Positions 57,082 to 62,547 of a DNA stretch of 64,000 nucleotides are shown here, in pieces. The stretch is from Candidatus Omnitrophota bacterium (GTDB taxonomy: Bacteria; Omnitrophota; Omnitrophia; Omnitrophales; JACROU01). Where the stretch lies: contig JAJDCD010000023.1 of NCBI GenBank assembly GCA_029261035.1, positions 237,126-301,125 on the forward strand, in the 5' to 3' direction. Each line of letters starts with the position of its first letter. Positions within the stretch are counted from its first letter, which is position 1. A model generated the notes under the pieces. The model saw only the letters and a program-made list of their open reading frames with translations. It did no database searches and was not told where the DNA came from. The position numbers were made by a program, and so were the translations under genes.

Positions 57082-59064
57082 TTAAACTTTTAGTTGTTTT
57101 TCGGCGTCGACAACGTCGCGATTCATTCGGCTCATTGCTTTTATGGCTTTGTCTTTGAGATGGTCGGAGACATTTGGGGCATGGATTAATTGGCGTAATA
57201 ATTGAACGATCATCCGAAAACATCTTACTAACTCCCCTTCAGCTACAGTGGCATTCTTCATTACTTTTTCAAACGAATGGTTTTGATACCAAGCTTCGAC
57301 ATATTCTGTCAGATGAAAAAAGGCAGGTTTGGTAAAGGGATGAATTTCAAATTTTCTTTCTTTTTTGTAAACGTGTTTATTGCAACTTGTAGCCAGATTT
57401 TCTACATTTCTGAATCGTTTATGGAGATCAGGCATTTCGTCGTTCTTTCTAGGTTCATAAACGAGAGCTGCTAATATAACACAAAGTTCTAAAGGGTTGA
57501 TCGCATCTAAGTGGCCGTCCCCTTGCATTTCTCCAAGCAGAAGTTCGTAGCCATAGAGTCGTGAAGCAAATTTACCTTTTTCTGAAATTTTATTTTTTTC
57601 AATATAACCCATATCTTTAAGCAAACTGATTTTGGATTGCATTAACTCTAGAGCCAACCGTTTATTTCTTTTACTGCTTTGATAAGCATGAAATGATTTT
57701 GGGTAAATCTCTAGCAGTCTTTCTCCGAAAATTTCGTAAAGATTGAGGACGGTAGCGTAGCCCGTATTAAACTGACTGCGCACAGATTCATTTTCTCGAA
57801 AGATAATGCGTTTCACTTCTTCATGATCTATTTCATGAGGATTAACGCGAGTATAAACAAAACCTTCTTTATCCATTCCTCTTCGACCTGCACGACCTGC
57901 CATTTGGTAGAAATCGCGGGTTTTTAAAGGTCCAAAATGAGTGCCATGATACTTTCTTAAACAGTCGAAGACAACGGTTCGAGCGGGCATATTGATGCCT
58001 ATTGCAAATGTTTCGGTGGTAAAGATCAGTTTAATCAGTTTGCTGGTAAATAAAACTTCAATCACTTCCTTTAATGTAGGAAGCATCCCTGCATGGTGAA
58101 AAGCCACACCTCTTTCGATCATGGTAACCATCCAAAGAGCAGAGCGTTCCTCAGAGAGATTGTATTTTTGTAATAAACTATTAAAGAGATCTAAAACCTT
58201 ACTTCTTTCATCATCGCTTAGGAAATTATAATTAGATAGTTCTAAGGCCAAAGATTCGCAGCGTTTTCTGCCGAAAGTGAAGTAAATACAAGGCAGTTTT
58301 TCTTCTGCCTTTAGGGTTTCGACCAAGGTTTCTATTCGGTTCGCTTTTGCTTTAGGCCGATCGATTCGATTGCGCTTGTATCGATCTCTCATGGATAAGC
58401 GCCAATCTTCTCTGTTTTCATAGCCTTGTTTTTTTAATCTTGGCATGTCTTCGAAAAATTTATTTTGGCATTGAAAAATATGGTGAAGCTTAACAGGCCT
58501 ATGTTCTTCGATAATAACTTCTACAGGACGCTCATGAACTTCGCGAATCCAAGAGGCCAGTTCGTCCACATTGGGAATGGTTGCTGACAGGCATAAAAAA
58601 TTGATGTGTTTAGGGGTGAACATAATTGCTTCTTCCCACACAGTGCCTCTTTCGGGGTCGTCTAAATAATGGATTTCATCAAAAATAACCCAAGAAATAT
58701 TTTCAAAGCGTTTTGGGTTTTCGAAAAGAGTATTACGAAAAATTTCTGTAGTCATTATGAGAAGAGAGCCTTTAGGGTTGATTGAGACATCTCCCGTTAA
58801 AATCCCTACTTCATTTTCGTATTTGTGTGTAAAATCTCTAAACTTTTGATTGCTAAGAGCTTTGATAGGAGAGGTGTAGATTACCCCTTCGTTTCGGCTC
58901 ATAGCCATTTCGATGGCGTATTCTGCAATTGCGGTTTTCCCAGCACCGGTAGGAGCTGATACAAAAACAGATTCTTCTTTTTTGATGATTTTGATGGCTT
59001 CTTCTTGAAACGCATCATATTTAAAAGACACGAGAACTCCTTTGCATGCTAGCGTAGAGCGCAT
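57082..59064 (-). CDS. Ski2-like / DEAD-DEAH superfamily 2 RNA helicase
   Basis: 660 aa. Motif I APTGAGKT, motif II DEIHYL, motif III SAT, HHAGMLP, motif VI QMAGRAGRRG. The C-terminal helical domain is reminiscent of the Ski2/HelY C-terminal region. Confidence 0.8.
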   Translation of the reverse strand: MRSTLACKGVLVSFKYDAFQEEAIKIIKKEESVFVSAPTGAGKTAIAEYAIEMAMSRNEGVIYTSPIKALSNQKFRDFTHKYENEVGILTGDVSINPKGSLLIMTTEIFRNTLFENPKRFENISWVIFDEIHYLDDPERGTVWEEAIMFTPKHINFLCLSATIPNVDELASWIREVHERPVEVIIEEHRPVKLHHIFQCQNKFFEDMPRLKKQGYENREDWRLSMRDRYKRNRIDRPKAKANRIETLVETLKAEEKLPCIYFTFGRKRCESLALELSNYNFLSDDERSKVLDLFNSLLQKYNLSEERSALWMVTMIERGVAFHHAGMLPTLKEVIEVLFTSKLIKLIFTTETFAIGINMPARTVVFDCLRKYHGTHFGPLKTRDFYQMAGRAGRRGMDKEGFVYTRVNPHEIDHEEVKRIIFRENESVRSQFNTGYATVLNLYEIFGERLLEIYPKSFHAYQSSKRNKRLALELMQSKISLLKDMGYIEKNKISEKGKFASRLYGYELLLGEMQGDGHLDAINPLELCVILAALVYEPRKNDEMPDLHKRFRNVENLATSCNKHVYKKERKFEIHPFTKPAFFHLTEYVEAWYQNHSFEKVMKNATVAEGELVRCFRMIVQLLRQLIHAPNVSDHLKDKAIKAMSRMNRDVVDAEKQLKV

Positions 59065-59103
59065 AGCGTTTAGCGTATAGTAAAAACAGAAAGACTCTGG
59101 GTC

Positions 59104-59283
59104 CCGGCTCGGTGGCCGGGATCCAGTGTCTTTCTATATCTCTGGATTCCCCCGCCCAACAAGACGGCAGGCAGGCGACAATAGATTTCGGGAATGACCT
59201 TGCACCACGTAGGGTGCATAGTAAAGCAATTATGGATGTCATTGCGAGGGAGGACAAAGGACCCGTGGCAATCTCGGATTTTT
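59104..59283. repeat. Intergenic modular repeat cluster A-B-C upstream of the helicase
   Basis: 59104-59134 ccggctcggtggccgggatccagtgtctttc (module A without the GTCAT head). 59144-59198 ggattcccc...agatttcgggaatgac (module B). 59238-59283 gtcattgcgagggaggacaaaggacccgtggcaatctcggattttt (module C). Confidence 0.6.
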
Positions 59284-59388
59284 CTGACTTCCGACTTCTG
59301 ACATCTGGTATATAATATATAGTATACATGAATCCCAGAGGTCTATCTCAAATGATCCAAGTTTGATTCATATCTATTTATTTTATTT

Positions 59389-59439
59389 GGCACCACAGCG
59401 TTTTGTACCCAGTGTGCCGGGTCTTTAGACCTGGCACAC
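59389..59439 (+). ncRNA. Conserved ~50-nt hairpin element (copy 2 of 2)
   Basis: ggcaccacagcgttttgtacccagtgtgccgggtctttagacctggcacac. The stem GTGCCGGGTC / GACCTGGCAC has one G-U wobble that is valid only on the plus-strand RNA. It lies ~78 nt upstream of the plus-strand gene at 59517. Confidence 0.35.
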
Positions 59440-61214: not shown

Positions 61215-61233
61215 TTGTTGATCATGATCGTCT

Positions 61234-61272
61234 GAGATTGCCGCGACTCACTGGTTTTAGTCTCGCAATGAC
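61234..61272 (-). repeat. Module C repeat in inverted orientation, immediately after the stop of the 59517 gene
   Basis: gagattgccgcgactcactggttttagtctcgcaatgac is the reverse complement of GTCATTGCGAGACTAAAACCAGTGAGTCGCGGCAATCTC. Confidence 0.55.
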
Positions 61273-61416
61273 GTTTGTCCTAATCCCTTAGGCAGAGGAA
61301 GCTCTTTGCTAAAGGCCTCTTTTTGCCCCCAATCCTCCTATGTGTTAGGCTTCTTTAAAGAGGTCTGTACTGTTCTTTGAAACGAGTTTAAACGCATAAA
61401 AAGGGAGGTTCGTCCT

Positions 61417-62547
61417 ATGTTTTCGCATAAAGAAATAGAACGTTTGGGCCATATGGAGCATTTAGAAACCCCTATGGTGAGTTGCTACCTTAGCTTTACA
61501 TCAAGTAATCAGTGGAAAAAAGAACTAGAAATAAACCTGAAAGATTGCATTAAAGAAGGTAAAGAAAAACTTGGAAAGTTTCGCTTATCAGAAGATGATC
61601 ACGGATTTTTAAGTACTGATTTAAATCGAGTTAAACACTACTTTGATGACTATCAACGAAATGGGGAACGTGGTGTTATCGTATTCAGTCATGCAAAAAA
61701 AGATTTTTTCTTAGCTAAACCTATTTACCACCCCATCCATAATCGTGTTGTTATTGATTTTGATATTTACTTAAAACCCCTTATGAATTTGTTTCAGCAA
61801 AATAGAAGATATTGTGTTGTTTGTGTCAGCCAGAAAAAAGCCCATGTCTTTGAATTTTTTATGGGACATTTGGAGCGGCAAGAGGAAATTTTTGATGTAA
61901 TTCCTAAAAAAGTAAAATCCGGTGGATTTCATGGTTATGAAGGGAAAAAAATTGAGAGGCACAATCATGAAGAGGTTCGGCACCATTTTAAAACAGTGGC
62001 AAATAAAGCCTTTGAGTTATTTATGCAGGATCATTATGAAGATTTGATTTTAGTGGGAGAACAACACACTGTTAAAGAGTTTGAAACAAACCTCCACTCT
62101 TACTTGAAAGAACGTGTTGTGGGGCGCCTCCATTTAAATCCAGAAACGGAGCTTTCTGCGATTAAGGGAATGGCACAAATCATGGAGAGTGATATTAAGA
62201 GAAAAAAGGATTACCAGATTATTGATCAGCTAATGACCTCAAATCATGAGAAAGGCCTTGGTGTAATCGGCCTAAGCGGAGTGCTTAGAGCTTTGGAACG
62301 AGGAAGTGTTCAACGTCTGATTGTGTCCGAGGACTATTCTCAACCTGGATGGATGTGTTTTGACTGCTCTGTTCTTCGTGCGGATGGGTCTCAGTGCCCT
62401 ATGTGTGGAAAGGAGCTGACTCTTATTCGAGATATTGTGAATCAAGCAGTAGAAGAAGCCATTCATCAAAGAGCTCAAGTGCATCACTTAGCTCCTGATA
62501 TTCCAATTCCAGAACATATTGGAGCACTTCTTCGATTTGCTGTTTAA
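61417..62547 (+). CDS. eRF1/Pelota-fold protein (bacterial eRF1-like) with GGQ changed to GGF and a C-terminal CxxC...CxxC zinc ribbon
   Basis: 376 aa. The segment KKVKSGGFHGYEGKKIERHNHEEVRHHFKTVANKAFELF aligns with the eRF1 domain 2 GGQ-loop region ([30 protein letters not shown]). The domain 3-like segment is GLSGVLRALERGSVQRLIVSED. Zinc ribbon CFDC...CPMCG. Confidence 0.6.
   Translation: MFSHKEIERLGHMEHLETPMVSCYLSFTSSNQWKKELEINLKDCIKEGKEKLGKFRLSEDDHGFLSTDLNRVKHYFDDYQRNGERGVIVFSHAKKDFFLAKPIYHPIHNRVVIDFDIYLKPLMNLFQQNRRYCVVCVSQKKAHVFEFFMGHLERQEEIFDVIPKKVKSGGFHGYEGKKIERHNHEEVRHHFKTVANKAFELFMQDHYEDLILVGEQHTVKEFETNLHSYLKERVVGRLHLNPETELSAIKGMAQIMESDIKRKKDYQIIDQLMTSNHEKGLGVIGLSGVLRALERGSVQRLIVSEDYSQPGWMCFDCSVLRADGSQCPMCGKELTLIRDIVNQAVEEAIHQRAQVHHLAPDIPIPEHIGALLRFAV

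Follow-up and report, generated by a model that had tools for sequence, protein, structure and literature searches.

Probable joining by deletion of a family-10 bacterial aeRF1 homologue, a Ski2-like helicase, and a DUF6178 protein in an Omnitrophota chromosome

The Locus

The DNA considered here is a stretch of 64,000 nucleotides from a Candidatus Omnitrophota bacterium (contig JAJDCD010000023.1 of assembly GCA_029261035.1), hereafter the window, whose positions are used throughout. Within it, the gene of a compact Ski2-like helicase diverges from two genes on the opposite strand, one for an acidic 565-aa protein of the family DUF6178 and one for a 376-aa protein related to the release factor eRF1 (its gene is termed baeRF10). 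The initial annotation of this locus saw in the three genes a candidate RNA-surveillance or ribosome-rescue module, possibly related to defense. The evidence assembled here makes it likely that they are three independently inherited chromosomal genes, namely a ribosomal A-site factor of the Balon superfamily (probably non-catalytic), a housekeeping Mtr4/HelY-like helicase, and DUF6178, which a deletion has joined. The features of the locus are as follows.

57082–59064, minus strand: Mtr4/Ski2-family superfamily 2 (SF2) RNA helicase, 660 aa (open reading frame (ORF) and Pfam DEAD, Helicase_C, and DSHCT)
59065–59516, no strand: divergent intergenic region with hairpins and a repetitive extragenic palindromic (REP)-like element (inverted repeats, RNA fold)
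59517–61214, plus strand: DUF6178 protein, 565 aa, acidic, all-alpha (ORF and Pfam)
61215–61416, no strand: 202-nt spacer between DUF6178 and baeRF10 (sequence reading, repeat alignment, fold z)
61417–62547, plus strand: baeRF-1 family 10 protein, 376 aa, Balon superfamily (Pfam, NCBIfam, PDB profile, AlphaFold/Foldseek)
61921–61938, plus strand: Gly-rich loop GGFHGY, residues 169–174 (translation)
62356–62406, plus strand: zinc ribbon CxxC-x9-CxxC, residues C314, C317, C327, and C330 (translation)
62754–63722, plus strand: CDF-family cation efflux transporter (Pfam Cation_efflux and ZT_dimer; TIGR01297)

All three ORFs of the initial annotation are present, and its descriptions of the individual proteins hold: an eRF1/Pelota-superfamily fold with a degenerate GGQ loop (GGF) and a CxxC...CxxC ribbon, a compact Ski2-like SF2 helicase, and an acidic partner of 565 residues. 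The way in which it connected them fares less well, so that the earlier interpretation as a whole is partly supported.

A Three-Domain Bacterial aeRF1 Homologue

For the 376-aa protein, family and fold are read directly from tool results, as are the genomic comparisons given further on. The protein matches Pfam PF18854 (baeRF_family10) over residues 118–241 with 81.4 bits, against a cutoff of 27.1, and has additional weak matches to eRF1_2 and eRF1_3. NCBIfam models of the Balon-type RHF families align to it over most of their own length, two of the three nearly end to end, with scores under their cutoffs. When a profile of 34 homologues was searched against the PDB, the solved structure that ranked first was the Balon of Mycobacterium smegmatis, MSMEG_1130 (8v9j_z, E 1.5e-27), followed by archaeal aRF1 (2e-20), Rv2629 (9e-18), and Pelota (3.5e-10). 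The Pelota structure 3j15 aligns to the middle and C domains only.

The AlphaFold (AF2) model of the protein, with a predicted local distance difference test score (pLDDT) of 89 and a predicted template-modeling score (pTM) of 0.78, superposes over its full length on Balon and on aRF1/eRF1. The top Foldseek matches of the model are the ribosome-bound MSMEG_1130 structures 8v9j and 8v9l (E 8e-26, template-modeling (TM) score 0.66–0.70), after which come aRF1, the Balon of P. urativorans, and eRF1, with Pelota/Dom34 at a TM score of at most 0.41. We therefore assign it to the bacterial aeRF1 homologues with three domains and do not regard it as an orthologue of Pelota. The analogy to Pelota drawn in the initial annotation thus stands at the level of the superfamily, and the much greater closeness to Balon and aRF1 weakens the parallel with Dom34 and Ski2.

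Proteins of this kind are numerous. An exhaustive profile search returned 7,970 homologues, as representatives of clusters at 50% identity, at E ≤0.001, and 1,255 at E ≤1e-30. The superfamily includes the Balon-type ribosome hibernation factors P. urativorans Balon, MSMEG_1130, and Rv2629 of M. tuberculosis; Balon homologues have neither the GGQ nor the NIKS motif, bind to the ribosome at the A site, and lie in variable neighborhoods of a stress type (Helena-Bueno et al. 2024, PMC10901736). The 376-aa protein resembles them in its three domains, its length of about 370 residues, and its variable neighborhoods. It differs at the site of their lasso loop, where it has a conserved Gly-Gly-aromatic loop instead. 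The protein also contains a dipeptide, H105-P106, a possible counterpart of the HP motif in the N domain of Balon.

The GGQ-Position Loop and the Zinc Ribbon

The loop of the 376-aa protein at the position of the catalytic GGQ reads KSGGFHGYEG, and the passage cited for it in the initial annotation, KSGGFHGYEGKK, is present in the translation. No glutamine occurs from P163 to H182, and neither a GGQ nor a NIKS motif is found in the sequence. The register of the alignment can be drawn in two ways. If the conserved helix that follows the loop is taken as the anchor (R181, H182, and H190), the GGQ of aRF1 falls on H172-G173-Y174 and the GGF of the window protein lies three residues upstream. Either register leads to the same outcome, a missing glutamine. 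AF2 confidence is low at loop residues 167–172, which directly precede the helix at 174–204.

The ribbon, CFDC...CPMC, is confirmed in the translation and lies within the C-terminal, Pelota-type domain, where alignment pairs it with an insert of archaeal aRF1 (4af1), CPNDH...CSDC. In other baeRF-1 families, a two-strand insert at the same site is regarded as a degenerate ribbon (PMC6514570), and in Balon the insert site carries a β-hairpin that binds EF-Tu (PMC10901736). In the 376-aa protein this site is filled by an intact zinc ribbon.

Conservation of both elements was measured in a subfamily alignment of 156 representatives, composed of seven earlier finds and the top matches of the profile search. 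The residue after Gly-Gly is tryptophan in 88 of them, phenylalanine in 27, and tyrosine in 8, so that it is aromatic in 123 of 156 (79%); glutamine occupies the position in 6 (4%). The glycines themselves, G169 and G170, are kept in 103 and 113 members, and the residues of the following helix in 120 (R181), 120 (H182), and 144 (H190). The closest frequent glutamine is that of a helix with the sequence RIQRH (50/156), a site at which the 376-aa protein has glutamate. The ribbon cysteines are conserved as well, with C314 and C327 each conserved in 154 members, C330 in 150, and C317 in 130. The Gly-Gly-aromatic loop and the zinc ribbon are therefore a signature of the subfamily, and the protein of the window is an ordinary member of it.

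These counts bear on a published description. Burroughs and Aravind (2019, PMC6514570) described family 10 of baeRF-1 as one that may retain a catalytic-type glutamine and flagged it as possibly catalytic. Like that family, the 376-aa protein combines N, middle, and Pelota-type domains with a zinc ribbon, but its loop is without the glutamine. To judge from the alignment, the zinc-ribbon subfamily of family 10 does not match the statement on glutamine, as GGQ is almost never present in it.

The same residues determine how seriously an enzymatic role should be taken, in which the 376-aa protein would act alone as an active peptidyl-tRNA hydrolase in rescue or release, with the Gly-Gly-aromatic loop in place of GGQ. 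Conservation of the glycine pair and of the downstream arginine and histidines is in line with such a role, as are the singling out of family 10 in the literature and the retention of the full aRF1-like architecture of three domains and a zinc ribbon. With aRF1 and eRF1 the protein shares the three-domain fold, a Gly-Gly loop before a basic helix, and the zinc-ribbon insert; it differs from them in lacking the GGQ glutamine and NIKS, and in its bacterial host (bacteria with baeRF-1 homologues keep the classical release factors RF1 and RF2; PMC6514570). Against hydrolysis stand the loop without glutamine, the rarity of glutamine after Gly-Gly across the subfamily, and the missing NIKS-type motif for stop-codon recognition. 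Its score on the aRF1_eRF1 equivalog model TIGR03676 is 57.5, far under the cutoff of 234.7, and all structurally characterized bacterial aeRF1 homologues are non-catalytic hibernation factors (PMC10901736). An active hydrolase is therefore considered unlikely, and a non-catalytic A-site factor is the preferred assignment.

Another reading would make the zinc-ribbon proteins of family 10 a distinct class of A-site factor, neither release factor nor Balon-style. Their GG-Trp/Phe loop could engage the peptidyl-transferase center, and the ribbon could mediate a metal- or GTPase-dependent recruitment, possibly with cooperation of the helicase in this clade. Metal-dependent recruitment through the ribbon would fit the conserved CDF metal-efflux gene next door. 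We hold this reading to be quite improbable.

The Helicase

The 660-aa helicase has the Pfam domains DEAD, Helicase_C, and DSHCT, the last at E 9e-30. Its best solved relative is the MTR4 chain 6c90_A (734 aa), which aligns in a single stretch to residues 14–654 at E 9e-121, while Mtr4/Ski2 chains of about 1000 residues align in two stretches. The structure 6c90 is, we presume, an arch-deleted MTR4 construct. The pattern of matches fits a helicase of the Mtr4/Ski2 type that has a DSHCT domain and no arch insertion. With Mtr4 and Ski2, and presumably with bacterial HelY, it has in common the DExH core, the winged-helix/ratchet region, and DSHCT. It differs from Mtr4/Ski2 in the absence of the arch (KOW/stalk) insertion and of N-terminal extensions, which accounts for its length of only 660 residues.

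The helicase is widespread in its phylum. Among 120 relatives listed, all are 54–73% identical and about 650 residues long, and every named one is from Omnitrophica/Omnitrophota. Three orthologues at 56–58% identity have unrelated neighbors, either a hydrolase and a GDPD gene, or FecR/TPR genes and AddB.

The suggestion that the locus may serve defense can be made specific, as an anti-phage system of the Hachiman type with a HamB helicase and an effector. The helicase core does match the PADLOC profiles of HamB (residues 15–404, E 4e-37), but this is a match to the generic SF2 core, and the similarity to Mtr4/Ski2, DSHCT included, is far stronger. PADLOC gave no defense-family match for DUF6178 or the baeRF protein, and no HamA-like partner was found. 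The phylum-wide occurrence of the helicase and its place on the core, origin-proximal chromosome also speak against such a system, for which there remains almost no likelihood; the proposed link to defense is not supported.

The DUF6178 Protein

The 565-aa protein matches Pfam DUF6178 (PF19676) with 343 bits, against a cutoff of 25.5 (E 4e-102), and the match is nearly complete, with residues 9–561 aligned to positions 3–558 of the 561 in the profile. It is acidic, with an isoelectric point of 4.74, and all-alpha. Structural comparison of it gave no informative match. DUF6178 is a conserved all-alpha protein without an assigned role.

Conservation of the Neighborhood

The initial annotation had named the failure of the neighborhood to recur in other genomes as an outcome that would refute it, and this is essentially what the comparison gave. 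The contexts of baeRF10 were compared in relatives at 53%, 46%, 34%, and 29% identity and in 34 loci of a metagenome scan (L001–L007 and L034–L067). The arrangement of the window is repeated only in L001/L002, where baeRF10 is 53% identical and the proteins overall 53–73%. At the 37 other baeRF10 loci, neither the helicase nor DUF6178 is near baeRF10 within the flanking DNA examined.

The neighbors of baeRF10 change from lineage to lineage. In L004, for example, it is flanked on one side by Hsp20 and on the other by a sigma-70-like gene, a setting of the sort described for Balon homologues (PMC10901736). Clustering of its neighbors gave a clade-specific mix of SbcCD-like, rhomboid, TrkAH, and methyltransferase genes, and that of the neighbors of DUF6178 a mix, likewise clade-specific, of thioredoxin/NHL, M16-like peptidase, and ribonucleotide reductase genes (labels in both cases from reading of the sequences). 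No informative theme emerged from the clustering. Across the window and its two closest relatives, the one neighbor that is kept is the CDF gene, which lies immediately 3′ of baeRF10 in the window, in L001 (11321–12121), and in L003 (5271–6185). Synteny alone may account for this adjacency, or it may reflect a connection with the availability of metal.

On the side of DUF6178, 25 distinct loci were compared. Adjacency to the helicase is confined to cases in which DUF6178 has 45% or more identity to that of the window, found in seven genomes (the window, L001, L008, L009/L028, L011, L071, and L072); the helicase is missing beside DUF6178 at the other 18 loci. One may ask whether the two form a genuine divergent functional pair in one clade of Omnitrophota, with baeRF10 as a bystander. 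They stand head-to-head in all seven genomes, with DUF6178 45–60% and the helicase 68–73% identical to those of the window. Two inserted genes nevertheless separate the pair in L008, and a single inserted gene does so in L071; the partner is missing at the 18 DUF6178 loci and at three more distant helicase loci, and the spacer varies from 76 to about 500 nt. As the seven genomes are one clade that shares a wider gene order, plain synteny explains the pairing, and a functional pair appears distinctly unlikely.

How DUF6178 and baeRF10 Became Adjacent

The gene order in relatives indicates how DUF6178 and baeRF10 may have come to adjoin. In L008, L009, L011, and L071, DUF6178 is followed by a thioredoxin/NHL gene of about 540–710 aa. 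After this, directly or past one or two ORFs, come a gene of about 470 aa on the opposite strand and then PmbA (L009 stops inside the ~470-aa gene, and L028, the same contig with longer flanks, reaches PmbA). In L001, where DUF6178 and baeRF10 are separated by a 158-aa ORF, this ORF matches the C-terminal 117 residues of the thioredoxin/NHL protein at E 8e-26 and, on this similarity, seems to be what is left of that gene.

The other side of the junction is seen in L003, which has the order TldD, radical-SAM, ATP-grasp, baeRF10 (46% identity), and CDF. The first two of these have orthologues, in the same order, where L008 ends downstream (61% identity for TldD and 83% for radical-SAM). L071 and L003 come from one sample (SRR22388342) and have GC contents of 52.7% and 52.6%. 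Each contig ends within an ORF6N-like gene (L071 at 12377–12727, L003 at 2–316) that is intact in L008, between PmbA and TldD; this gene is probably multi-copy and breaks assemblies. The ORF6N-like protein segments of L071 and L003 overlap and differ at a few residues.

Joined, these loci suggest an ancestral order of helicase (minus strand), DUF6178, thioredoxin/NHL, the 470-aa gene (minus strand), PmbA, ORF6N, TldD, radical-SAM, ATP-grasp, baeRF10, and CDF. By this composite order, DUF6178 and baeRF10 would once have been about 9 kb apart, with seven or eight genes in the interval, and the 64-kb window contains none of these. The two-gene unit that the initial annotation recognized in DUF6178 and the eRF1-like gene is thus best explained by a lineage-specific deletion, in which the block between them would have been lost in the window and in one relative.

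It is against this history that the surveillance model has to be weighed. In that model, the helicase, DUF6178, and the eRF1-like protein would act together on stalled ribosomes or aberrant RNA as an analogue of Dom34/Pelota and Ski. The three genes are indeed adjacent in the window and in L001/L002, the helicase is truly of the Ski2/Mtr4 type with DSHCT, and the third protein is truly a homologue of A-site factors. As in the system of Pelota/Dom34 and Ski2-Ski3-Ski8, the window encodes a glutamine-less A-site factor homologue and a Ski2-family helicase. Yet no analogues of Hbs1, Ski3, or Ski8 were found, and the linkage is not conserved past one close relative. The helicase is common in Omnitrophota, whereas the clade of baeRF10 at ≥46% identity has three members only, and orthologues of the helicase have unrelated neighbors. 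The gene remnant in L001 and the 9 kb of genes originally between DUF6178 and baeRF10 point the same way, as does the much closer relation of the protein to Balon and aRF1 than to Pelota. A common module is accordingly regarded as very improbable, and inheritance as three separate genes, later joined, is the reading retained here.

Intergenic Regions and Repeats

The divergent region is strongly structured (RNA fold z = −6.4), owing to two near-perfect hairpins, identified in an inverted-repeat search at 59088–59135 and 59412–59439, and to one copy of a REP-like element of about 40 nt, GTCATTGCGAG-N18-GGCAATCTC, with invariant ends and a variable center. The four copies of this element in the window are all intergenic, at 42292–42334, 42368–42406 (minus strand), 59238–59275, and 61234–61272 (minus strand). 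Since copies occur elsewhere in the window, they are generic genomic repeats and not specific to the locus. The region packed with structured repeats that had been noted between the divergent genes is therefore real as to its structure; its repeats are generic, and in relatives the spacer between helicase and DUF6178 measures 76–194 nt. A 102-aa ORF at 59021–59329 (minus strand), which overlaps the helicase start and the intergenic hairpins, is likely spurious.

No unusual structure is seen in the 202 nt that separate DUF6178 from baeRF10 (z = −0.46); this spacer holds the REP-like copy at 61234–61272 and a strong Shine-Dalgarno sequence, GGGAGG, for the baeRF10 gene. Consensus scans for promoters and terminators gave matches at or below chance level and are uninformative on co-transcription. 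A search of the whole window against Rfam at gathering thresholds returned one tRNA only, with no match in the locus.

Chromosomal Setting

The window carries the core genes serS, gyrA, gyrB, dnaN, dnaA, parAB, mnmG, and yidC (1243–32732), with dnaA at 9378–10763 on the minus strand. The cumulative GC skew has its minimum at about 26–29 kb, where gene orientation also flips, and oriC probably lies near 28.3–29.1 kb. The locus is part of the origin-proximal core chromosome, neither a mobile element nor a defense island. A bacterial homologue of deoxyhypusine synthase (Pfam DS, E 9e-42; 29082–30071) adjoins the putative origin.

The window also holds two giant ORFs, one of 2631 aa (34340–42235) and one of 4546 aa (43433–57073), a size class of genes that has been reported as a trait of the Omnitrophota (bioRxiv 10.1101/2023.11.21.568195). 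The former contains NUDIX and DUF218 domains. The latter has zero Pfam matches and internal repeats of about 100 aa, with the motifs D[IV]SLL[VI] (nine times), LNPLGF (six times), and ASSLG (six times). A type IV pilin-like ORF (~42700–43150, minus strand; N-terminal KGFTLLEIIVV) stands between these giant genes and corresponds to the N_methyl gene beside the helicase in L008 and L009. Because the pilin-like gene directly adjoins the helicase in relatives (L009), the 4546-aa gene looks inserted in the window.

Discussion

By analogy with the characterized Balon proteins, it is reasonable to propose that the 376-aa protein acts at the ribosome. Most likely it would be a non-catalytic factor that occupies the A site when ribosomes are idle or under stress. 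Its N domain would be placed at the decoding center, and the Gly-aromatic loop, together with the Arg/His-rich helix of the middle domain, at the peptidyl-transferase center. The partner of the C domain would be a translational GTPase, and the intact zinc ribbon lies where Balon has its EF-Tu-binding β-hairpin. Binding to the ribosome, a role in hibernation, the absence of catalysis, and any role of the ribbon are all features that we infer from the characterized homologues. The helicase, for its part, would be a phylum-wide, stand-alone Mtr4/HelY-like enzyme, with a predicted 3′-to-5′ RNA helicase activity.

Several points weigh against the reading of an independently inherited, Balon-like factor joined to its neighbors by deletion. 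The 376-aa protein falls under the NCBIfam equivalog cutoffs of the RHF families AOC03_06830 (73.7 bits against 330), MSMEG_1130 (71.4 against 480), and Rv2629 (58.6 against 320). An intact ribbon and a strongly conserved Gly-Gly-aromatic loop are unlike the characterized Balons, so the mechanism could differ, and the published suggestion of catalysis in family 10 belongs with these objections. The analysis covered 64 kb of the genome. On the genomic side, an exact overlap between the ends of L071 and L003 was sought and none was found, so the composite gene order is inferred rather than proven. The divergent pair of helicase and DUF6178 persists throughout the seven genomes of a single clade, perhaps as a sign that the two genes are regulated together.

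A counterpart in bacteria to the Dom34-Ski pathway of eukaryotes and archaea would be notable, if true; the evidence points to a routine case. That genes adjoin in a single genome, or again in a close relative, is no evidence of a functional module. The Gly-Gly-aromatic signature bears on the catalytic suggestion published for family 10, and it makes the family a clean candidate for biochemistry.

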